Shown here piece by piece: positions 18,833-51,426 of a stretch of DNA of 64,000 nt (its first letter is position 1; the number at the start of each line of letters is the position of its first letter). The stretch lies in contig OX597820.1 of assembly GCA_951406725.2 (NCBI GenBank), positions 96,596,001 through 96,660,000 on the forward strand. Reading direction: 5' to 3'. Below the pieces are notes generated by a model that did not search any database, was not told the origin of the DNA, and saw nothing but the letters and a program-made list of their open reading frames with translations. Origin of the DNA: Octopus vulgaris. Lineage: Eukaryota. The translations under genes and the position numbers were made by a program.

Positions 18833-18851
18833 TATTATTATTATTATTATT

Positions 18852-19407
18852 GAGTGAGAGAGCAGTGCATGCCATCAAAGTGACACTGGGGTAAATATAT
18901 ACGAAACCCAGTATACCCATCATGACTACCCGTCTGATAAGGGTACACAAGGCACATGCATCACAACCCTATGTGCGTGACATGGTGATCCCATATCGAG
19001 ATAAACAGCACATGACCTTGCAGGTGAGGCCCAGTTAGAATTTTCTTCTGGTCGAGTAACCAATCCCGCTCAAAAGCTCCCTGAATAAGGGTTGTTTAAG
19101 GATGTTGAATGAAACACCTATGTTTCCAGAGTTGAATTTTTCAAACCCCAAAGAAACTCTTTCAACACAACGCTATGATGCTCCCCCATTACTTCTGCTC
19201 GTAAACAGAGATGCACATATCGTCAGCCACTAAGGGACATGGTCAACTGGTTAAGGTCAAACAACTGACAAGCAAATCTGTGGTATCGAGCAGAATATTT
19301 GCTGTAGCCCATCTTTTATACCAAGACAAAACAATGTACATGATAACACTTCCAATCAGTTAAGATTAGAAGCCACGAGGGCCACTGCTGGTACTGCATC
19401 AGGGCAT
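18852..19407. mobile_element. ~555-bp non-coding interspersed element embedded in (TAA/TCA)n
   Basis: Full inverted copy at 35036-35593 and a partial copy at about 54780-54930. Both full copies are flanked by trinucleotide repeats. Confidence 0.75.
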
Positions 19408-19444: not shown

Positions 19445-20140
19445 ATTACTTTTTTTTTTCTTCTTTCAAATTTGCTTCCATTTCTTGCCGAGTGCCTTCC
19501 CGACTCCTAGGGCAAAGAAACTCATAGTATACATTGGTAGGCCATTAAACCAAACTCAATAGTTCGTTCATTTTTTTTTTTTTTTTTTAAGTTAAATTAA
19601 AATACATGAGCAGCAACAGTTCTCACATCGACAATGCTCTTCTCAATACGTGTGATGTACCAGTTAAGACAATCTTTTGCACTTCTTGCAGGGATGGTAA
19701 GCCAGGGATCATTCTCATATAATTTTCGGTTCCCTTCTTGATCCTTCCTAGTGCTCCTACGATCACTGGTATTGTAACCGCCTTGAGATGCCACATTTTC
19801 TCAATTTCAATGAGTAGGTCTTTATATTTTCTGAGCTTGTCAAACTCTTTCGCTGAGATATTATGATCACAGGGGATGCTCATGTCGATCAATAAGCAAA
19901 CTTTATTGTTTTGGTCTTTCACAACAATATCTGGTTTATTGGCCTTGATGGTTCGGTCTGTATGTACTGGAAAGTCCCACAGAATGGTTACATTTTCTCC
20001 TTCAGTTACAGCCTCAGGGTGGTGATTATACCACTTGTCGGCAGTTTTGATATTGTAATGCCGACTTATTAGCCAGTGTAGATATTGGCCAACTCTGTCA
20101 TGTCTGGTGCTAAGACTTTACATCCAGAGATTAGGTGGTC
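19445..20140 (-). mobile_element. R4/Dong-clade non-LTR retrotransposon 3' fragment (RLE domain plus 3' UTR)
   Basis: ILWDFPVHTDRTIKANKPDIVVKD..CLLIDMSIP..KYKDL..IPVIVGALG..QKIVLTGT. Flanked by (TTA)n. Confidence 0.9.
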
Positions 20141-20196
20141 CTTATTATTATTATTATCATCATTATTATTATTATTACTATTATTATTATTATTAA

Positions 20197-35037: not shown

Positions 35038-35593
35038 GCCCTGATGCAGTACCAGGCAGTGGCCCTCATGGCTTCTGATCTTAACTGATTGGAAGTGTTA
35101 TCATGTACATTGTTTTGTCTTGGTATAAAAGATGGGCTACAGCAAATATTCTGCTCAATACCACAGATTCGCTTGTCAGTTGTTTGACCATAACCAGTTG
35201 AGCATGCCCCTTAGTGGCTGACGATATGTGTATCTCTCATCACGAGAAGAAGTAGTCGGGGAGCATCACAGCCATGTGTTGAGAGGAATTATTCAGGGTT
35301 TGAATAATTCACCTCTGGAAACATGGCTGTTTCGTTCAACATCCTTAAACAACATTTATTCAGGGAGCTTTTGAGCGGACTGGGCTACTTAACCTGAAGA
35401 AAATTTTAACTGGGCCCTACCTGCAAGGTCATGCCCTGTTTATCTTGATATGAGATCACCATGTTGCACACATGTGGCTGTGATGCATGTGCCTGGTGTA
35501 CCCTTATCAGACTGGTAGTCATGATGGGTATACTGGTCTTCGTATAACTGTACCCCAGTGCCACTTAGATTGCATGCACTGCTCTCTCACTCA
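35036..35593. mobile_element. Second copy of the ~555-bp (TAA)n-associated element
   Basis: Reverse complement of 18852-19407. Confidence 0.75.
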
Positions 35594-35607
35594 ATAATAT
35601 AATAATA

Positions 35608-40727: not shown

Positions 40728-43700
40728 TCAGGATTTGGGCACCAAGGCCCATTCGAGCAGAGAGTTATTGTTTGCGGAGACATATCCGGGTGTGGGTGGT
40801 TTGTCCGGGACTGTTTGAAGGAATTTGTCCAATGACTTCTTGAATTTTGTGTGGTCAGTTTCTTTTTTGACGTGTCCTGGTGTAATGTTGAAGAGAGCGG
40901 GTCCAATTGAGGTGAAATAGTTGTGCTGTATTGCCGTTATGTGATGCGATTTAGATTTTTGTTGTGGACGGATGGCACATGGTCCAAGCCTTGGATGTAT
41001 TTTGAAGGTGATGCCAACATCATTCGGACAGTGCTGATGGAATATTTTCCACATCATACAGATAATGTAGCGTTCACGGCGTCGTTGGAGTGAATACAGT
41101 TTCAGCTTCTCTAGTCTACCCCAGTAGTCAAGGTCTGACATGCCATCTATCTTTTTTGTGATTGACCTTTGGGGAGCTTCAATTCTCATAATATTTTGTT
41201 TTGTGTAGGGAGACCACAGTGGACAGCAGTATTCAAGGTGGGGTCGGGCAAAAGTGGAGAAGAGAAGGATAATAGTGTGGGAATCTCTCGACTGGAAGGT
41301 TCTGAGAATCCAGGAACACATTCTGCGGGCCATGTCAACTTTGCTGCTTATATGTGTAGCCCAGCTTATGTTGTTGTCCACTGTTACTCCCAAGTCTCTG
41401 ATGTTGTTGGATGCCATGAGAATTTCTCCAGAAGGAAGAGAGTATGGGAGTTTCAGAGCGTCCTCCCTTCCAAAGTGGATCAGTTCGAATTTGTCTTCGT
41501 TTAGCAACATGTTATTCTTTTCCGCCCATTGGACAACAGCCAGTAGGTCTGACTGAAGGCTTATTCGGTCATCCACGCCATTGATGACCTTCTGGAGCTT
41601 GGAATCATCAGCGAAGGTTCTGATGTTACTGTGTTTGATGGTGTCAGTAATATCATTTATGTAGATGATGAAGAGAAGTGGGCCCAACACAGTGCCTTGT
41701 GGGACACCACTGCTGACTTTGGCTGGGCTGGATTTGACTCCTTCGACTACAACATGTTGGGTTCTGTTAGACAGGAAGCACTTGATCCACTGCAGCAGCT
41801 TTCCAGTGACACCAATATTGGACAGCTTTCTCAGAAGGATCTTATGATCAACCCTGTCAAAGGCCTTGCTGAAATCAAGGTAGATGACATCAGTGTTGGA
41901 ACCCTCTCCCAAGGCTCTCAAAATGTCATCAAAATGATGCAGTAGCTGCGTCAGGCAATCTCTCCCATTACGGAATCCATGCTGGTTGGAGTTCAGCATA
42001 TTATGACTCTCAAGGAAGTGAGTCATACGCGATCTCAGCACTCTCTCAAATACCTTAATGATATGAGAGGTGAGTGAGATTGGACGGTAATTCACGGCAA
42101 GCGATTTGTTTCCTTTTTTGAAAACTGGGACAACAGACTGGGATAGAAGGTCTTCTGGTATATATCCAGCATCCAGTGAGTTCCGCCACAGATTGGCTAG
42201 AGGGGGTGCAAGTTGGTTTTGACACATCTTCAAGACACAAGCAGGGAACCTATCGGGACCTACTGCTGAATTATGCTTCATTTCCTTTATTGCTGCTAAG
42301 ACATCAGGAGCGCCAAAGGTTATGTCCGATAAAGTGTATTGGGGAGTAACATCACTGATACAGCCCAGATCAGTCATATCAGGATTGCTGAAAACAGAGC
42401 AATATTGTTTCTGCAATATCTCTCCCATGGTTTTGGCATTGTCTTGAAGAGTACCATTTTCATCAATCAGAGGGCCAACAGTAGAACCAGTGACTCTGTG
42501 TTTTTTTGCAAATGAAAAGAACACTTTGGGATTGAGTTTGATCTTCTCAATGGCCCAGGCCTCTTCAGCTCTTCGCTGACTATTGATGATAGACATCATG
42601 TTGTTTTGGAGTTTATGTTTTTTAATCTCTAGCGACGAGATGGCAGTCAGGTTGGTGTGTTGCTGTTGACAGTATTTCAGCTTGTTGATTTTTTTGTTAA
42701 TTCTTTTAATTTTCCTGATGAGAGATTTTCTATTTCTAGGGATTCGACACTTAGATTTGTTTGCAGATCTTAATGGGGTGTGTTTTGCACATATGTTCGT
42801 AATGGTGTCTACAAATGACTGCCAGGACTTTTTGATGTTAGTGGGTGTGTATGTGTGCGTGAAGGACCAATCGACTTGTGCAAGATCATTATTGATCGCT
42901 TCCCAGTTTGCATTGTGGAAATCCATAGTGTCAAATGGATGAACAGGAGGGATGACATTTGTTTTGCATTTTGGCCAGTGAAATCTCAGATCACAGAGAA
43001 CCATGTCATGATCGGAGAGTAGGGTTTTCTCCACTGCAATATTGTGGATAGTATCAGTGTGATTGCTGAAAATTAAGTCTAAGACGTTTTTATGACATCT
43101 CGTTGGTTCGAGTACCAGTTGGGACAGGAAGAAATCATCCATGAAGTCAAGAAGCGATTCCACTGCCTCCCTGTCAGGGGTTGAGAGAGAAGAACCTGGC
43201 GGCAGACTGTTTGTAGACCAGTCAACCCCGGGAAGGTTGAAGTCTCCCATCATTAAAATGTTGTCAGGTTGACACTGCTGAATGAAACACTTTATGTTGT
43301 TGAGGCATTCCTTGAAGCATGGTAGGGGCGTTTGGGGTGGTCTGTAGAGCCCAACTACTGTTAAGTTGTTGGTTTGACTGAATACAGCGACTGCTTCGCA
43401 GTATCCATTGGAAAATATGTTCATGGCTTCTGTTGAGAATGAATCATGAACATAAATGGCAGTCCCACCCTTTCTTCTGCCAGCACGATCAGCACGAATG
43501 GTTTTGAAATTTTTAACTTTCACCTCGGCTTCCAAGTGAAGGTTACTAAGATGGGTTTCAGTGAGGACGAAGAAAGGGATGTGGTTTGGATGGGCCTCGA
43601 CCCAGTCCTCCAGGAATCTTATCTTCCATTTTTGTGTATTGGTGGAAGGGCTGATGCCTTGGGCATTAAGCAAAAATGTTGAGGCGAGAGTGGATGGTTT

Positions 43701-43745
43701 TAATTGTTTTGTTGATTTGTTTATTTGATTGCTTTTTAATGGCAT
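40728..43745 (-). CDS. LINE ORF2: apurinic-like endonuclease plus reverse transcriptase (1005 aa)
   Basis: APE motifs LLNAQG, LTETHL, RADR..GGTAIY, LYRPP, MGDFN, LDLIFSN, SDH. RT motifs YRPISL, QHGFR, YLDFSKAFD, GVPQGTVLGP, FADD, DLGV. CR1/L2-type RPHLEYC..WSP. Confidence 0.95.
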   Translation of the reverse strand: MPLKSNQINKSTKQLKPSTLASTFLLNAQGISPSTNTQKWKIRFLEDWVEAHPNHIPFFVLTETHLSNLHLEAEVKVKNFKTIRADRAGRRKGGTAIYVHDSFSTEAMNIFSNGYCEAVAVFSQTNNLTVVGLYRPPQTPLPCFKECLNNIKCFIQQCQPDNILMMGDFNLPGVDWSTNSLPPGSSLSTPDREAVESLLDFMDDFFLSQLVLEPTRCHKNVLDLIFSNHTDTIHNIAVEKTLLSDHDMVLCDLRFHWPKCKTNVIPPVHPFDTMDFHNANWEAINNDLAQVDWSFTHTYTPTNIKKSWQSFVDTITNICAKHTPLRSANKSKCRIPRNRKSLIRKIKRINKKINKLKYCQQQHTNLTAISSLEIKKHKLQNNMMSIINSQRRAEEAWAIEKIKLNPKVFFSFAKKHRVTGSTVGPLIDENGTLQDNAKTMGEILQKQYCSVFSNPDMTDLGCISDVTPQYTLSDITFGAPDVLAAIKEMKHNSAVGPDRFPACVLKMCQNQLAPPLANLWRNSLDAGYIPEDLLSQSVVPVFKKGNKSLAVNYRPISLTSHIIKVFERVLRSRMTHFLESHNMLNSNQHGFRNGRDCLTQLLHHFDDILRALGEGSNTDVIYLDFSKAFDRVDHKILLRKLSNIGVTGKLLQWIKCFLSNRTQHVVVEGVKSSPAKVSSGVPQGTVLGPLLFIIYINDITDTIKHSNIRTFADDSKLQKVINGVDDRISLQSDLLAVVQWAEKNNMLLNEDKFELIHFGREDALKLPYSLPSGEILMASNNIRDLGVTVDNNISWATHISSKVDMARRMCSWILRTFQSRDSHTIILLFSTFARPHLEYCCPLWSPYTKQNIMRIEAPQRSITKKIDGMSDLDYWGRLEKLKLYSLQRRRERYIICMMWKIFHQHCPNDVGITFKIHPRLGPCAIRPQQKSKSHHITAIQHNYFTSIGPALFNITPGHVKKETDHTKFKKSLDKFLQTVPDKPPTPGYVSANNNSLLEWALVPKS

Positions 43746-44010
43746 GTGCAGTGGGGTAATAGTGGTGGATGGTGGTGGGTGATAGCTCGGATGATTTTTT
43801 CCAGTTCTTTTGCTAGATTCATTATAGCTAAAAAAGAGGAAGAAGAGGTGGTTTCCTGTCTAGGGAACTGTAGGTGACTGTGGTTGTGGTTATTTTTATA
43901 TGAGTGGTTATTTCTATATGAGTCGTAGGTTTTTTTGCTTTTATTTTTATTGTCGTAGGTTTTTTTGCTTTTATTTTTATAGTCGTAGGTTTTTTTGCTT
44001 TTATTTTTAT
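43736..44010 (-). pseudogene. C-terminal remnant of LINE ORF1, overlapping the ORF2 start
   Basis: Open frame (YKNKSKKTYD)n-SYRNNHSYKNNHNHSHLQFPRQETTSSSSFLAIMNLAKELEKIIRAITHHHPPLLPHCTCH*. It ends in ATGCCATTAA, which includes the ORF2 ATG. Confidence 0.55.
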
Positions 44011-44098
44011 AGTCGTAGGTTTTTTGCTTTTATTTTTATAGTCGTAGGTTTTTTTGCTTTTATTTTTATAGTCGTAGGTTTTTTGCTTTTATTTTTAT
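43921..44098. repeat. 29-30-bp tandem repeat x6 (agtcgtaggtttttttgcttttatttttat)
   Basis: Direct reading of the sequence. Confidence 0.95.
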
Positions 44099-44137
44099 TA
44101 TTATTAAATAATAAAATTTATTTTTTATTATTATTTT

Positions 44138-44180
<43 letters not shown>

Positions 44181-44576
44181 ATTCACACAATAGAGTTCGC
44201 GTAGAGTGAATTGGCTTCGAAGGAATAGCCAAACGAGGGACATGTAAGTGTGTATGAAGCATGTATGAGAGAGAGAGAGCAGAGAAAGGAGAGATAGAGA
44301 GGGGATAAGAGAAAGACAGAAAACCAGAAAAACAGAATGTCAGGGTAACTTGTCTTACGTGTAGAAATAACATATTAAAGGTGAAACTAAAACATTAGTG
44401 ACACCTACTTTGCTAGTTTGTTGTAAAAGTATATAAGGGACAACAAATGGGAAAGAAACAATAAAATATATACATTTTCCTGCTGTAAAGGAATCTCTAA
44501 GGGAGTGATAGAGATATATTAAGATAGAGGGAGAGAGAGAGAGAGAGTTAGAGAGGAAATGGTATTTTCATTGTAA

Positions 44577-44994
44577 GGCGGCGAGCTGGCAGTAACATTA
44601 GCACGCTGGGCGAAATGCTTAGCAGTATTCGTCTGCCGTTACGTTGTGAGTTCAAATTCCGCCGAGGTCGACTTTGCCTTTCATCCTTTCGGGATCGATA
44701 AATTAAGTACCAGTTACGCACTGGGGTCGATGTAATCGACTTAATACCTATGTCTGTCCTTGTTTGTCCCCTCTATGTTTAGCCCCTTGTGGGTAATAAA
44801 GAAATGGGTATTTCGTCTGCCGCTACGTTCTGAGTTCAAATTCCGCCAAGGTCGACTTTGCCTTTCATCCTTTTGGGGTCGATTAAATAAGTACCAGTTA
44901 CGCACTGGGGTCGATATAATCGACTTAATCCGTTTGTCTGTCCTTGTTTGTCCTCTCTGTGTTTAGCTAGCCCCTTGTGGGTAGTAAAGAAATG
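44577..44994 (+). mobile_element. SINE family A, two units, TSD ggtattttcat
   Basis: TSD at 44561-44571 and 44995-45005. Confidence 0.9.
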
Positions 44995-45069
44995 GGTATT
45001 TTCATACAGAAATTATAATGGAATTAAAGTAGCAACAATATTCAGTTTGCTTCTAAGCTAGATATATCA

Positions 45070-45120
<51 letters not shown>

Positions 45121-45126
<6 letters not shown>

Positions 45127-45307
45127 AAAGAGCTTCTACAGGACTAGAACTGTTTCATTCAAAAGAAATCATCAGGCAGCTTCCTGATGATTTCTTTTGA
45201 ATGAAACAGTTCTAGTCCTGTAGAACTCCTTCTATAAAATAAATTAATTTACTCTGCTATGTATTGAGTACCTTATTTACTGTGGTTAACCCCGACTCAA
45301 CTCGGGA

Positions 45308-45311
<4 letters not shown>
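45121..45311. mobile_element. Palindromic mini-element between (TA)n tracts with hammerhead core boxes
   Basis: Hairpin at 45121-45237 (~55-bp arms). The right arm carries CTGATGA-tttcttttgaat-GAAAC, but stem I is not satisfied. Confidence 0.65.
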
Positions 45312-45370
<59 letters not shown>

Positions 45371-45395
45371 AGGTTTGGAGATGATGTACAGGTAT

Positions 45396-45545
45396 TATAT
45401 ATTAGAAGAAATGAGGTAATCAGAAGATCGGATGGTTCATGTTTACAGATATTTATTTATATATTACATTTTTTACATATATATATCATATCATTCAGAT
45501 CATTAGCGCTTTCTCCCATTCTAGTGGGGTTTTCAAATCAAAATA
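45396..45545. repeat. Left arm of the inverted-repeat host element of the Hero insertion
   Basis: 45396-45485 is the reverse complement of 49371-49460. Confidence 0.85.
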
Positions 45546-45638
45546 ATTCTCTCCTGATGACCCCATACACTTGCTAGCTTCCGATATACGGAGCTTTTAA
45601 CTGGTAGCACTTGCATGTGCAAGTTGTTTGCAAGATAT
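45546..45638 (+). repeat. 5' terminal direct repeat (93 bp)
   Basis: Base-for-base identical to 49282-49374. Confidence 0.97.
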
Positions 45639-45664
45639 CTAAGACCTTGTGGTAGGTAACCACT

Positions 45665-45764
45665 GACAAACCGGAAAGACGGTTAGGCATCTTGGAAAGA
45701 CAAGAGGACTGCTCGGAAAGACCAGCGGACAATAGGAAAGACTATCGACACCAGGAAAGACTGG
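45665..45764 (+). ncRNA. Array of five hairpins with invariant GAAAGA loop in the 5' UTR
   Basis: aaccg/cggtt, tcttg/caaga, tgctcg/ccagcg, atag/ctat and ccag/ctgg, each closing GAAAGA. Confidence 0.8.
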
Positions 45765-45906
45765 CGGAGGCTACGGACTTACGATCCTCGCCTCTGTATT
45801 TTATTGTAACAGACATAACAGGAAAAGACAGCCCCATGATTGACCGAGAGGGGGAGTCGAGAATCAATCAAACCCAGTCAGCACGGAAACGACCTTTGAA
45901 ACGAGC

Positions 45907-48786
45907 ATGATTATTCATTCGAACAGCGGACGAAATGCAAACAACTTTGGATGCAAGCTGTGCTATAGAACCTTTGCAACTGAGAGAGGCTTGAAGATAC
46001 ATCAGGGAAAGACTTGTGAGAAGAGGACAGAGCAGTGTGGATCGTCAGATCGTAAAACACGTGGCAAATCATCCCCGGACTCAAACCACAGCGGATCGAT
46101 AAATGCTACAGCACAGAACTCTTCACGTGAAGAAACTACAAGTCATGAAACTGGTGCATCGGATAATACTCAGAGGAAACCGAGGGTTTTGTGGCCTGCT
46201 GCTAATGAGAAAGTGAAATATAAAGTGTTTGAAAACAAGGTTTGTCGGACTCTTTATAAAATGACAGGCTCTACAGTGGAAAAACTGGGAAAATTATCAA
46301 GCTCAATATACGATGTAGCAAGAGATTTATTTGGAATAAAAGAGAATATCCGACTAGAGAAAGGAAAGTGTGGACCAAGCAGGAGGATCAGAAAAATGCA
46401 GCAGTTGAGGAAGGAAAAGTCCGACTTAAGAAAGAGATGGAGATGTGCTGCACTAGATGAGAAACCTGGCCTTGCGTTGCTGTATAACGATTTGAAGAGG
46501 AAATGTCGTTATGTGCAACGACATATTCGCCGATATGAGCGTCGAAAAGAAAGTAAAAGGACTCGAGGGCAGTTTCTGAAGGACCCGTACGGGTTTACTA
46601 AGAAGCTGTTCACTGAGCCGAAGAGTGGTACTTTATCGTGCACTAAAGAAGAATTGGATGCTCATATCAAGGAAACCTACAGCGATCCGCACCGTAATCA
46701 GCCGCTGCCATCTCTACATGGGCTAAATCATCTCTCAGGACCTGATATCGAATTCCAGATTGGGGACATCAGGGAGAGAGAGGTGAATGACTTCGTAAGA
46801 AAAGCTAGAGCGAAGAGTGCCCCAGGAGGTGATGGCGTCTCATATAAAGTCTACAAATACTGCAATCGTCTGCGAAAGAAGCTCTTCGTCCTAATCCGAC
46901 AACTGTGGCGCGAGGAGACTATAGTAGAGGATTGGTGTAAGGCAGAAGGTATATACCTGCCGAAAGAGGCCAATGCAAAGACCATAAAACAGTTTAGGCC
47001 GATATCCTTATTGAATGTGGAAGGCAAGATCTTTATGGGAATTCTGTCGAGGAGAACAGTGACATATTTACAGAGTAACGGATATGTTGATGAATCTGTT
47101 CAAAAGGCCGGAATCCCCGGGATCCCTGGATGCGTTGAACACTGTTTTTCGATTTGGAAAGCGATTCAGGATGCCAAACAGAACAAGAAAAGTCTGAACG
47201 TGGTATGGCTCGACCTAGCTAACGCGTATGGTTCAGTGCCACACAAATTACTAATAACAGCCATGGACCACTTCCACATTCCTGACAAAGTGATCAAAAT
47301 AATGAGGATGTACTATGAAAGTTTCGAAATGAGGTTTACAACTGGAAGTTTTACAACAAATTGGCACCGATTGGAGGTTGGCATTGCTGCTGGCTGTACA
47401 ATATCTGTCACGTGGTTTATCTTAGTCATGGAGTTGATTTTGAAAGGTGTAGATTTTTCGGAACAAATCGCCCATGTACAATCGCCTAAGAAAGCCTTCA
47501 TGGATGACGTGACACTTCTAGCTACAGATAAACAAATCATGCAGAATGCCCTTTTGAGATTAGACGAACGTGTAAGGTGGTCAAGGATGCGATTTAGAGC
47601 AAAAACGTCGCGTAGTCTGACATTTGTTAAGGGAGTGCAGAAAGAATTTAAATTTCGAATATCGGAAGAAAGCATTCCAACAGTCAAGGAAGAGCCCGTC
47701 AAGAGCTTGGGACGAGTATATGCTGGAACATTGTCAGATAGAAGTCGTGGGATTGAAATTATGAAACAGGCCGAGGCTGGGTTATCAGCGATTGATGTTT
47801 CGAAGTTACCAGGTAAATATAAAATTTGGTGCTTGCAGTTCGGACTGTACCCGCGACTTGCGTGGCCACTTTTAATATACGAAGTAGCATTGTCACAAGT
47901 TGAAAAGATCGAACAAAAATGTAATGTGTTCATTAGAAAGTGGCTAGGTCTACCTCGTATGTTGAACAGCTCAGCTCTTTATCGTAAAAGAGGTTCGTTG
48001 CAGTTACCAATAGCATCAATAGTCGAAATATATAAGTTGGGGAAGATACGGACGGTCATGATGCTGAGAGAATCGAAGGATATGGAAATCAGGCGTAACC
48101 CACCAGAGGTGAAAACAGCCAGGAAGTGGAAAGCAGAAGCAGAAACTGACAACATCTTGTCTTCTCTTACACACAGAGATATGGTGGGAGCAACGCAGAA
48201 CCATCGGAAAGGATTTGGTTTTGGCGCGGATCAGTTCAGACCGTTTGCAAGCATGATGCCGTGTGAACGCAGATCTGTTGTTAGCAACAGCGTCAAAACA
48301 AGAGAAGCAGAGAGAAGAGAGCTTCATTTGATCCGATGTGTTCATCAAGGTCAGATGACGAGATGGGAAGAACATGTTGTTGAGAGGAAGATAAGTTGGG
48401 ATGAGATGTGGAAGTGGACAACATCTCGGCTGAGTTTCCTGATTCGTTCATCTTATGATGTTTTGCCATCACCTACGAATCTAGTAAGATGGAACGTCTT
48501 AGAGAATGACGTCTGCAAATGTGGAAAAGTCGGTACACTAAAACATATTCTTTCCAACTGTTCGTTAGCATTGAACAGGTACACATGGAGGCACAACTTG
48601 GTCCTTAAGGTTATCTTCAATGCTATAAAGAATCAAATTCATCTCAACAACACTGAGGAAAAATCGTTAAAAGTACCATCAAGAGAGTTCATTACCTTCG
48701 TGCGACCAGGTCAGCAGATCCGTTTCAAGAAGAAGACCAAGAAACTTCCTGAGAAAATGAAAAGTGGAACGACTATTGGGAGGTAA
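45907..48786 (+). CDS. Hero-like polyprotein: N-terminal C2HC zinc finger, RT, CCHC knuckle (frameshifted before the RLE)
   Basis: CKLC..GLKIHQGKTC, SAPGGDG, FRPISLLN, LDLANAYGS, FMDD, CKCGKVGTLKHILSNC..YTWRHNLV. Confidence 0.92.
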   Translation: MIIHSNSGRNANNFGCKLCYRTFATERGLKIHQGKTCEKRTEQCGSSDRKTRGKSSPDSNHSGSINATAQNSSREETTSHETGASDNTQRKPRVLWPAANEKVKYKVFENKVCRTLYKMTGSTVEKLGKLSSSIYDVARDLFGIKENIRLEKGKCGPSRRIRKMQQLRKEKSDLRKRWRCAALDEKPGLALLYNDLKRKCRYVQRHIRRYERRKESKRTRGQFLKDPYGFTKKLFTEPKSGTLSCTKEELDAHIKETYSDPHRNQPLPSLHGLNHLSGPDIEFQIGDIREREVNDFVRKARAKSAPGGDGVSYKVYKYCNRLRKKLFVLIRQLWREETIVEDWCKAEGIYLPKEANAKTIKQFRPISLLNVEGKIFMGILSRRTVTYLQSNGYVDESVQKAGIPGIPGCVEHCFSIWKAIQDAKQNKKSLNVVWLDLANAYGSVPHKLLITAMDHFHIPDKVIKIMRMYYESFEMRFTTGSFTTNWHRLEVGIAAGCTISVTWFILVMELILKGVDFSEQIAHVQSPKKAFMDDVTLLATDKQIMQNALLRLDERVRWSRMRFRAKTSRSLTFVKGVQKEFKFRISEESIPTVKEEPVKSLGRVYAGTLSDRSRGIEIMKQAEAGLSAIDVSKLPGKYKIWCLQFGLYPRLAWPLLIYEVALSQVEKIEQKCNVFIRKWLGLPRMLNSSALYRKRGSLQLPIASIVEIYKLGKIRTVMMLRESKDMEIRRNPPEVKTARKWKAEAETDNILSSLTHRDMVGATQNHRKGFGFGADQFRPFASMMPCERRSVVSNSVKTREAERRELHLIRCVHQGQMTRWEEHVVERKISWDEMWKWTTSRLSFLIRSSYDVLPSPTNLVRWNVLENDVCKCGKVGTLKHILSNCSLALNRYTWRHNLVLKVIFNAIKNQIHLNNTEEKSLKVPSREFITFVRPGQQIRFKKKTKKLPEKMKSGTTIGR

Positions 48787-49181
48787 CTGCAGATTTACCT
48801 GGGTGCCAGGTTTTCTTTCCCATCCCAGTTTCGAAAAAACCAGATATTTTGATGTGGTGTGAAAGAAAGAAAGTTTTAAATATAGTCGAGCTAACGGTTC
48901 CTCACGAAGATAATATGGACGCCGCTCGAGCTCGAAAATTAAACCGTTATGAAAACCTCCTCGAGGAATATGAAGACGCAGGCTGGAAAGCGGAACATTT
49001 TCCTATCGAAGTCGGATGTAGAGGGTTTGTAGGACACAGCGTGAGACGACTGTTGTTATCGTTAGGCCTAACTCATCGTAAAGTCAATACCACCATGACT
49101 GATATCCAATCTACAGTGGAGAAGGCTAGCCACTGGATTTGGTTAAAAAGAGACGATGAGCGATGGCTAGAAGTATATTGA
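48753..49181 (+). CDS. Restriction-like endonuclease (PD-(D/E)xK) domain, continuation of the Hero ORF in the -1 frame
   Basis: ENEKWNDYWEVTADLPG..KKPDILMW..IVELTVPHE..PIEVGCRGF..EKASHWIWLKR. The frame is open from 48753. Confidence 0.9.
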   Translation, partial: ENEKWNDYWEVTADLPGCQVFFPIPVSKKPDILMWCERKKVLNIVELTVPHEDNMDAARARKLNRYENLLEEYEDAGWKAEHFPIEVGCRGFVGHSVRRLLLSLGLTHRKVNTTMTDIQSTVEKASHWIWLKRDDERWLEVY

Positions 49182-49201
49182 GTTCATCATAACCAGCTGA
49201 T

Positions 49202-49313
49202 CTAGCAAGCGGGGCCTCATATCAGTGAGGGGGGCCGGTGCGCATTGATGCCGTCGAGAGGTAGGCCCCGAAACGGCGCGCATTCTCTCCTGATGACCCC
49301 ATACACTTGCTAG
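49202..49313 (+). ncRNA. Candidate permuted/pseudoknotted hammerhead ribozyme in the 3' UTR
   Basis: GCCGT-C-GAGAG (49250-60), GGCCCC-GAAACGGC (49264-77), CTCTC-CTGATGA (49285-96), with stem II partner GGGGCC (49231-36). Confidence 0.6.
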
Positions 49314-49374
49314 CTTCCGATATACGGAGCTTTTAACTGGTAGCACTTGCATGTGCAAGTTGTTTGCAAGATAT
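49282..49374 (+). repeat. 3' terminal direct repeat (93 bp)
   Basis: Identical to 45546-45638. Confidence 0.97.
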
Positions 49375-49448
49375 ATATGTAAAAAATGTAATATATAAAT
49401 AAATATCTGTAAATATGAACCATCCGATCTTCTGATTACCTCATCTTC

Positions 49449-49460
<12 letters not shown>
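49371..49460. repeat. Right arm of the inverted-repeat host element
   Basis: Reverse complement of 45396-45485, followed by (TA)n. Confidence 0.85.
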
Positions 49461-49523
<63 letters not shown>

Positions 49524-49882
49524 GAATGTTGGTTGGTCACCGAACGGAAAATATAAGTCTCTTTATTGTTTAAGTGGAATGTCACTAGATGTGACTCGTA
49601 ATGATTCACTCTGCAATCAAATATTGGCTTCGTAAAATACGGATATGCACACAATTTTGTATGAGGTCACTGAGTTCGGAAGTTATTAATAATGTATGAC
49701 GCAATTCAGACATGTTGTTTGTATTAGCTATTAGACATGAAATGTAATTTCATTATATGATAGGGTTTCACATATACAATATAATGAGTTGAAAAACTTC
49801 GATTATATCTGAGATTATAACGGCGACAGGCAGTTAAATGTCTCTAAGAATAAAGCATTTGAATGATGAATCTCAATGGCAG

Positions 49883-49943
<61 letters not shown>

Positions 49944-50015
49944 TGTATTATAATATTATAATAATATAATATAATAATATTCACTATTGTAATAACATAT
50001 TATATAGACTGGTTA

Positions 50016-50217
50016 AGGCGACGAGCTGGCAGAATCGTTAGAACGCCGGGTAAAATGTCTAGTGGCATTTTGTCCGTCTTTTCGTTCTGAGTTCAAACTC
50101 TGCGAAGGTCCTTTCACCTTTTGGGGTCGACAGAATAAGTACCAGTTGAGCACTGGGGTCGATGTAATTGACTTACCCTTCCCAAAAATTGCTGGCCTTG
50201 TGCCAAAATTTGAAATC
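50016..50217 (+). mobile_element. SINE family A
   Basis: Consensus match. Confidence 0.8.
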
Positions 50218-50359
50218 AATGTAAGCTGGTTTTTAAAAAATACCTTAGATGGAACATCAGCAGTCACTTCGAAATCTCACGTGTGGCACACCGTGCCCCG
50301 GGATGGGAGGGAGTGAGCTTACGTGCTGCACAAACATTTGATCACTATCACTACAGGAA

Positions 50360-50558
50360 TGGGAGTACTGAAAAGTCCCTGGCTTTAAGAGTATCACGAA
50401 AGGACTGGTTGGAGGCCCAACCTTCCGAGTTCTTTTACAGGGCTTGGAAAAACTGAAGGACTGCTGCAATAACTGTGTGAACCGGAGAAGGAAATCATAA
50501 ATGATCCTCCTGTATTTTATTTTACCCAAAATAAGGAACTTTTCAGCAACCCTTCGTA
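50360..50558. mobile_element. mariner-derived MITE
   Basis: Imperfect TIRs gggagtactgaaaagtccct and aggaacttttcagcaacccttcgta. Confidence 0.6.
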
Positions 50559-50559
50559 G

Positions 50560-50980
50560 AAGTAAGTCGATTACATCGAACCCCGCGCCTCATCTGGTAC
50601 TTATTCTATCGACTCCAAAAGGATGAAAGGCAAAGTAGACCACATCGGAGTTTGAACTCAGAACGTAAAGACGGATGAAATGCCGATAAGTATTTTGCCT
50701 GGCATGCTGACGGCCCTGTCAGCTTGCTGCCTTAAATGCGTAGTGTTATTAAGAATTGTTAAGGCGGCGAGCTGGCAAAATCGTTAGCTCGCAGGACGAA
50801 AGGCTTAGTGTCATTTTGCCCATCGCTGCGTTCTGAGTTTAAATTCCGCCCAGGTCGACTTTGACTTTGCCTTTCATCCTTTCGGGGTCGATAAAATAAG
50901 TACTAGTTGAACACTAGGGTCGATGTAATCAACTCATCCTCTCTCCCCCAAAATTGCTGCTCTTGTGACAAAATTTGAAA
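50560..50980. mobile_element. Two head-to-head family A SINEs (minus 50560-50733, plus 50763-50980)
   Basis: Consensus matches in opposite orientations. Confidence 0.8.
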
Positions 50981-51426
50981 CCATTATTAACAATTGTTTA
51001 GTGAGCTTTCAATCTGAAAATTAATATTCATTCTTAACTAAAACACAACGGTACACATTTGGCAGAAGGAAAAAAATTGACACTTTGGACTCCGGTAATT
51101 GTTTGTTACTTATTTTACGGATTGCAATGTTATGTCGATCTTGGCAAGATTTGAAATCAGAAAATTAAGCGGTGTAATTAAATAGCAATAGTCGTTTTTT
51201 TAAAGCTGCTGTAATAATTTTGCCAATTCACAGGTCTTCTAACCTGATATGCTAGTAGATAGCAATATGAGATATAATAATATGTAATATGAGATAGAAT
51301 TCCTTTCCCCTATAAGCATGAGACCTAACATTTTGACGGAGAAGGGCCAATAGATTACATCGATCCAAGGGCGTGGGAAGTACTTATTTTTTTATCGAGC
51401 CCAAAAGGATGAAAGTCAAAATCCAC

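Follow-up and report, generated by a model that had tools for sequence, protein, structure and literature searches.

A predicted split-core hammerhead and terminal direct repeats in a putative HERO-type retrotransposon of Octopus vulgaris

How does a retrotransposon of a class that normally lacks long terminal repeats (LTRs) come to lie between identical direct repeats? This question is raised by an element at positions 45546-49374 of a 64,000-nucleotide (nt) stretch of the Octopus vulgaris genome (assembly GCA_951406725.2, contig OX597820.1, positions 96,596,001 to 96,660,000, forward strand), hereafter called the window. Judged by its encoded domains, the element is a non-LTR retrotransposon with a restriction-like endonuclease (RLE). 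Here, we argue that its repeats consist of element DNA, that they probably arose during reverse transcription, and that the RNA concerned carries a predicted hammerhead of unusual wiring. The coordinates of all features are collected in Table 1.

Terminal repeats and the unit of the family

An earlier note, made from the sequence of the window, had described a 93-bp terminal identity. The identity proved exact and maximal: the two copies agreed letter for letter, and the match could not be extended on either side. BLAST within the window gave an E value of about 5e-44 for the pair, and a third copy was absent from the window. As the note had stated, the 5' copy begins 27 nt downstream of the predicted cleavage site (after the GUC at 49253-49255). 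It carries the 3' strand of stem I, the CUGAUGA word and the 3' strand of helix P0 of a hammerhead-like fold, which the repeat therefore splits. The flanking sequences were the two arms of one inverted repeat embedded in (TA)n. This host repeat also accounts for the outermost bases, as many as 4 nt at the left join (45546-45549) and 5 nt at the right one (49370-49374), so that the unambiguously element-derived core of the repeat is estimated at about 84 bp.

Contigs of four runs were compared with 45368-49281, a comparison that reveals joins, not transcripts or copy numbers. The contig depth climbed strongly toward the 3' end; it is unfit to rank parts of the element and was not taken as evidence. 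Beyond 45542 or 45549, other copies of the host repeat in these contigs ran into sequence that did not resemble the 93 bp. Contigs starting 26-31 nt inside the repeat and entering the 5' untranslated region (UTR) were found in runs X1, X4 and X13. The contigs running from the tail into the 5' UTR had depths of 31.5 in X1 (local bins, 31.5-32.9) and 119.5 in X4 (bins, about 126), and since they hold nearly all the depth across the 5' UTR in these two runs, the tail-to-5' UTR join is, by this comparison, the usual form of the family. A diverged contig with the same join and 23 differences was present in organism B. The family 3' end lay at 49369 and was followed by variable flanks (47 contigs in X13). 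Since other copies of the host repeat run on into different sequence and the join is usual in other runs, the 93-bp repeat is, on these contigs, element DNA and not a target site duplication (TSD), as the note had supposed. The centre of the host repeat appears to have been lost.

In all, 90 related loci were collected, giving 91 sequences with the window. A single-protein query found no match in genome contigs, and an alignment query found nine loci there and one weak viral locus. The order of ORF end, fold, 5' UTR and start of the open reading frame (ORF) was found on single contigs of L015, L031, L039, L041, L048, L053 and L064; most of these are unit-length, short-read contigs, which demonstrate continuity and not array length. 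The family unit is thus continuous from the 3' UTR through the hammerhead-like fold, the tail and the 5' UTR to the ORF, and the head-to-tail joins anticipated in the note recur across relatives. The 3' ends were fixed: L047, L048 and L049 have three different flanks but stop at the identical base, and the same holds between L017 and L018. The tail past the predicted cut measured 89-558 nt and the 5' repeats 37-1680 bp across relatives. No TSD was found at the junctions of the window or L048.

The 5' junctions were informative, with a flank and sequence upstream of the 5' UTR, in six copies including the window. Relative to the predicted cut, these copies start at +27 (window), +97 (L017, whose flank has only 9 nt), +1 or +2 (L037), -23 (L052), about -400 (L064) and -1125 (L048, with repeats identical at 1679/1680 positions). 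The note's prediction that 5' repeats never start upstream of the cut was thus contradicted by three of the six copies, and these three indicate that the template was often ligated or uncleaved across the cut. The start of L037 within 1 nt of the predicted cut, by contrast, fits a cut-defined 5' end. Ordinary 5' truncations were seen in L018, L029, L016 and L051, and L032, L005 and L011, which begin near the boundary, were assigned to neither group.

Table 1. Features of the element and its host repeat (window coordinates)
Feature	Position	Strand	Remark
Left arm of host inverted repeat (target DNA, like a miniature inverted-repeat transposable element, MITE)	45396..45487	.	Reverse complement of 49370-49460 with 3 differences; dense contig cover in 4/4 runs
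Inner part of host repeat (58-bp spacer)	45488..45545	.	Non-element continuation in other copies; loose ends behind 45542 and 45549 in X1, X4 and X13
5' terminal direct repeat (probable pseudo-LTR), copy of element tail	45546..45638	+	Exact maximal match to 49282-49374
5' UTR with five GGAAAGAC-type hairpin repeats (45673, 45694, 45715, 45735, 45754)	45639..45835	+	Clusters of this word ahead of the ORF in numerous relatives
Single ORF: N-terminal zinc finger, reverse transcriptase (RT), CCHC knuckle, RLE	45836..49181	+	Frame broken by 1 nt near 45849 and again near 48753
RT domain (Pfam RVT_1)	46969..47655	+	E 4.6e-17; best solved relatives R2 proteins, E 1e-40
RLE part, shifted frame	48753..49181	+	50% identity to C-terminus of intact relative P0002, E 8e-49
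Predicted split-core hammerhead	49202..49313	+	Every listed helix fully paired; covariation in relatives
Helix P0	49202-09/49306-13 and 49211-14/49297-300	+	Fully paired
Hairpin Px	49215-30	+	Fully paired
Stem II	49231-36/49264-69	+	Fully paired
Helix P	49237-43/49278-84	+	Fully paired
Stem III	49250-54/49273-77	+	Fully paired
Stem I	49256-60/49285-89	+	Fully paired
Core words	GAAA 49270-73; CUGAUGA 49290-96	+	Hammerhead core bases
Predicted cleavage site, after GUC	49255..49256	+	By analogy with hammerhead cores
Tail, from cut to family 3' end (putative internal priming point)	49256..49369	+	Variable loose ends behind equivalent position 45633: 47 contigs in X13, agreement 0.48
3' terminal direct repeat	49282..49374	+	Exact match to 45546-45638
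Right arm of host inverted repeat	49370..49460	.	5 nt in common with element end

The hammerhead-like fold across relatives

By analogy with hammerhead cores, the RNA of the 3' UTR is predicted to be a self-cleaving hammerhead that cuts after 49255. The fold has the block order cut site, GAAA, CUGANGA, is complete within one copy, is doubly pseudoknotted, and was the only descriptor match in the window when both strands were examined. The descriptor, which itself demands the core bases CUGANGA, GAAA and UH (H, not G) and the 10.1:11.1 pair, matched 28/91 sequences including the window. It matched 21/40 3' UTRs and none of 2000 shuffles, and a relaxed version matched 29/40 related loci and none of 1200 shuffles. 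With the cores and stems I and III alone, 33 candidates were obtained, all of them on the sense strand. These reduced to 26 non-redundant candidates. The one located at a contig start was set aside, leaving 25 for scoring, of which L084 contributes two.

Direct continuation of CUGANGA into stem II, with at least 3 bp to the strand before GAAA, was found in 0/25 candidates, and a direct stem II of at least 4 bp with a slip of up to 2 nt in 6/25. Instead, the strand that follows CUGANGA pairs with the P0 strand upstream, a flush hairpin comes next, and the five bases beyond it form a helix with the strand that precedes GAAA. This arrangement of P0, hairpin and stem II, located without using the stem II partner, was present at 20/25 loci; stem II then paired at 5/5 positions in 18/20 located loci, compared with 45/380 mismatched cross-locus pairs. 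A best-of search for stem II against shuffled upstream DNA gave no significance locus by locus, and this register-independent test was used instead. The first stem II pair (10.1:11.1), which corresponds to the G10.1-C11.1 pair of hammerheads, was G-C in 24/25 and G-U in 1/25. Stems I, II and III showed several pair types at most positions, that is, compensatory changes, with stems I and III being preselected. A MAFFT alignment misplaced the 5' helices and was not used for covariance modelling. As a negative control served pattern matches in genome and viral contigs, which were due to chance or protein-coding sequence: among the matches listed, the stems formed in 0/159 prokaryotic or viral loci picked for two core words (at least 120 genome-contig loci, 40 of these with possibly less flank, and 39 viral loci). 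In a quick tree of 37 rows (L003, L015 and L064 left out), motif-bearing rows occurred in all major branches, and the label was not clustered. Together, these comparative data support the hammerhead-like fold as a real, clade-wide feature.

Within the clade, the hammerhead lies 29-185 nt past the stop codon (up to 1602 nt) and is followed by the tail. In L031, L039, L041, L042, L053, L062, L064, L066 and L074, the cut falls 29-40 nt past the stop codon, and the 5' strand of P0 therefore overlaps the last codons. At such loci, translation might switch the ribozyme.

The wiring of the ribozyme, which the earlier note had missed, is the most unusual part of the element. Validated hammerheads of the SGC, CSG and GCS orders (Eckert et al. 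2023, PMC10085705) were described with contiguity of CUGANGA and stem II assumed and, in the text consulted, outside any retrotransposon context. They share with the window fold the order of cut site, GAAA and CUGANGA, a short linker between stems I and II (3 nt here), crossing stems and the full core. In the present fold, by contrast, a strand lying upstream of the cut supplies G10.1, and P0 and the hairpin are inserted at A9/G10.1. Because CUGANGA never runs directly into stem II, the predicted wiring is outside the six published permutations (types I-III, SGC, CSG and GCS). One extra base at the 5' end of stem II is already known (PMC4209133), and an inserted two-helix domain at stem II was not found for hammerheads in the literature searched. 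If true, the fold would be a natural hammerhead with a core discontinuous at A9/G10.1, and it would offer a compact cut-and-clamp RNA. The split core violates the block assumption of current descriptor searches, which would explain why Rfam misses it; the Rfam hammerhead models gave no match in 44000-51000 at E<=5.

Origin of the repeats

The fixed internal 3' ends, the inherited join and the variable yet identical overshoots fit copying from an internal start. We therefore consider it probable that the 93-bp repeats are pseudo-LTRs, produced by overshoot copying of a circular or multimeric RNA in the manner of Penelope elements; as its template, a circle is mildly favoured over an uncleaved linear multimer. 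The fold would cleave after 49255, and the ends of the resulting cut-to-cut monomer would stay paired through P0, stem II, helix P and stem III (about 30 bp in the window). Ends clamped in this way would favour re-ligation to a circle or allow the RT to cross the nick. The RT/RLE protein would nick AT-rich DNA and prime internally at the tail end (49369-49374, with a 5-nt target match here). The complementary DNA (cDNA) would run back through the cut site, the ORF and the 5' UTR and then beyond its own start. Microhomology (at most 4 nt here) would then let its end join the target DNA upstream, at a point that varies, and the overshoot would become the terminal repeat, 93 bp in the window and 37-1680 bp in relatives. 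Overshoot copies holding the whole ribozyme could yield new monomers. The note had also proposed an end-to-end bridged ribozyme. Such a structure is better placed on the cut-to-cut monomer than in this genomic copy, where the local CUGAUGA strand would probably compete.

The note's analogy with the pseudo-LTRs of Penelope-like elements (PLEs) fits the genomic signature of partial tandem units and a fixed internal start. In PLEs and animal non-LTR retrozymes, as here, partial tandem units give rise to terminal repeats, the repeat region carries a hammerhead, the RT starts at a fixed internal point and the targets are AT-rich (PMC11167929, PMC4209133). For PLEs, copying of circles for more than one unit was proposed (PMC4209133), and internal initiation on multi-copy RNA was demonstrated in vitro (PMC11167929). 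The R2 RT, for its part, is capable of template jumping and strand displacement (PMC12203849). PLEs differ in their telomerase-like RT and GIY-YIG nuclease, and their hammerheads are of a minimal type I believed to work as dimers, whereas the window element has an R2-like RT, an RLE nuclease and a ribozyme that is whole in one copy and doubly pseudoknotted. Like R2 and L1Tc, it would be a non-LTR element using self-cleaving RNA to define its template (PMC6765202); their ribozymes are HDV-like and at the 5' end, whereas the hammerhead here follows the stop codon and has a tail behind it.

A comparable end structure occurs in Drosophila HeT-A and TART, non-LTR elements of the apurinic/apyrimidinic endonuclease (APE) lineage whose 5' tags are 3'-end sequence of the upstream unit, as at the 5' end of the window element. 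They are telomere-specific and driven by a 3' promoter, and they are not known to carry a ribozyme.

A minor but real share of the probability goes to junction-targeted insertion or template jumping, by which a second, 5'-truncated copy (93 bp here) would have been added ahead of an existing 5' UTR, through either an endonuclease preference for the boundary of tail and 5' UTR or a jump of the RT to the tail end of another RNA. The ribozyme would then merely free units from read-through transcripts, like the HDV ribozyme of R2. The heterologous tandem in L041 suits this explanation, as do the truncated unit always being the upstream one (L041, L048, L064 and L052), two adjacent accession numbers on one fish contig that both encode relatives, the homology-free jumping of the R2 RT (PMC12203849) and the proposal that PAc of PLEs nicks its own pseudo-LTR (PMC11167929). 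On the other hand, the contigs mostly agree at 90-99% whereas the two window repeats are identical, the join is colinear within and between families with no extra bases, upstream of 45546 there is no stacked remnant, and most 3' ends sit in unrelated flanks. The note's own variant, an RT jump to the 3' end of a second template as the usual source, is unlikely in view of a tail-to-5' UTR join that is inherited colinearly.

It is very improbable that an accident at this one locus, by misassembly, gene conversion or ectopic repair, set a copy of an abundant tail before the element. The tail is very heavily covered by contigs, and the window copy has two private 1-nt frame breaks typical of long-read errors; yet the same join is the main form in X1 and X4, which come from different studies, is found in the diverged copy of organism B and recurs in many relatives. 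A long TSD in a host repeat that already held the sequence, as in rotifer R9, whose TSD is said to measure 126 bp, is a shade more improbable still and largely refuted. The perfect identity of the repeats would suit it, very long TSDs are reportedly possible for RLE elements such as R9, and no empty allele was seen among the joints listed (15 of 133). Against it, the host repeat goes on with other sequence at 45542-45549, the 93 bp include CUGAUGA as well as strands whose changes across the clade are matched by changes in the 3' UTR, and the order of tail before 5' UTR recurs at unrelated loci and in other organisms.

Overshoot copying of a hammerhead-bearing RNA thus remains the preferred explanation, and several points weigh against it. 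The cleavage, ligation and circular RNA that it invokes are predicted or inferred. Eleven of the 40 loci gave no motif match; some are too short or have the motif elsewhere, but this does not apply to L004, L043, L046, L075, L076 and L086. The nested minimum-energy fold of 49200-49316 was no more stable than shuffles (z -1.07, with pseudoknots outside the model). In L041:85-7000, two HERO-like units with no more than 68% identity follow one another head to tail, separated by one coherent, intact ribozyme; because one circle cannot join units so different, this tandem argues against a single-circle origin. Collapsed short-read assembly cannot separate arrays from dispersed long-repeat copies, and the 1679/1680 identity in L048 may have been forced by the assembler. 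Only six 5' junctions were informative, L017 with just 9 nt of flank. In addition, insertion by a PLE tested in vitro did not need hammerhead cleavage (PMC11167929).

A wider proposal is tentative, with the odds slightly against the full combination: HERO may be a whole RLE clade that replicates via ribozyme-closed circular RNA, with a hammerhead topology outside the six published, a core broken at A9/G10.1, a four-way junction that clamps the cleaved ends for ligation, and rolling reverse transcription that yields the terminal repeats. Pseudo-LTR replication is known from Penelope elements and was not found reported for the RLE class in the literature searched. Nor did that literature describe ribozymes, terminal repeats or tandem units in HERO; it did not include Repbase Reports, Fell et al. 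2025 and bioRxiv supplements, which may bear on novelty. The available excerpts of PMC4640811, PMC5678591, PMC13580325, PMC6765202, PMC3088659 and bioRxiv 10.64898/2026.07.22.740005 contain no link between HERO and a hammerhead or terminal repeat. If true, a widespread animal RLE clade, kin of the R2 proteins used in gene insertion, would replicate like Penelope elements, with internal priming and copies of more than one unit. The open question of whether the hammerheads of retroelements serve circular templates could then be addressed in an independent system, and the ends of HERO consensus sequences may be arbitrarily placed.

Coding region and other elements of the window

The frame breaks near 45849 and 48753 correspond to one additional base at each place in most contigs of the other runs. 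In the alignment of relatives, the knuckle residues C891, C893, H901 and C906 and the columns PD..EL..E..K.Y, resembling a PD-(D/E)xK nuclease, were conserved. The database held 439 proteins at E<=1e-50, with top matches of 60-66% identity. By eye, the RT motifs match the HEROTn, HERO-1_BF and HERO-1_SP rows of a published alignment much better than those of R2, Utopia and R4 (PMC7650587), and on this comparison the element is provisionally assigned to the HERO type. The cluster names of the matching proteins contained no HERO label. Like the window element, HERO elements encode an N-terminal zinc finger, an RT, a CCHC knuckle and an RLE in one ORF, and they show little target specificity (PMC4640811); here, a fixed rDNA or snRNA target was absent, and 3' ends sit in unrelated flanks, as expected for HERO. 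Two other assignments did not fit. Membership of the PLEs is contradicted by an R2-like RT and the lack of a GIY-YIG Pfam match, and an LTR retrotransposon by repeat lengths of 37-1680 bp, a window repeat without TG..CA ends and the lack of integrase and RNase H Pfam domains.

In the 5' UTR, the GGAAAGAC-type hairpin repeats (45673-45761 in the window) recur clade-wide. A CCGAGAGG word after a C-run at the ORF start was found in the window (45844-45851) and at 19 related loci (21 matches in total, one inside an ORF). It might act in the RNA, either in cap-independent translation or as a protein-binding site.

Two further RLE sequences were observed. A 3' fragment of a different RLE element lies at 19620-20150 (-), with 31% identity to P0002 and (TAA)n downstream; we take it to be R4/Dong-like, and it gave no match to the hammerhead-like descriptor. 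L120 (G002:C144:5000-24999) is a tandem array of a distant RLE element, with units of about 4.8 kb that are 99% alike, in a bacterial metagenome-assembled genome. It is likely a eukaryotic contamination, and no such hammerhead fold was found in it.

The window also contains an apparently intact APE-type long interspersed nuclear element (LINE) at 40728-43859 (-), with an open 1043-aa frame encoding an APE endonuclease and an RT. A near-perfect hairpin between (TA)n tracts at 45127-45231 (about 50 bp per arm, -75.8 kcal/mol) is probably a small foldback or MITE-like element. The repeat search of the window was dominated by microsatellites. A 544-nt dispersed repeat occurs at 18845-19388 and 35056-35599 in inverted orientation (89% alike), and a repeat of about 184-300 nt resembling short interspersed nuclear elements (SINEs) is present in many copies, often paired (e.g., 44628-44927; families D13, D14, D19 and D20).

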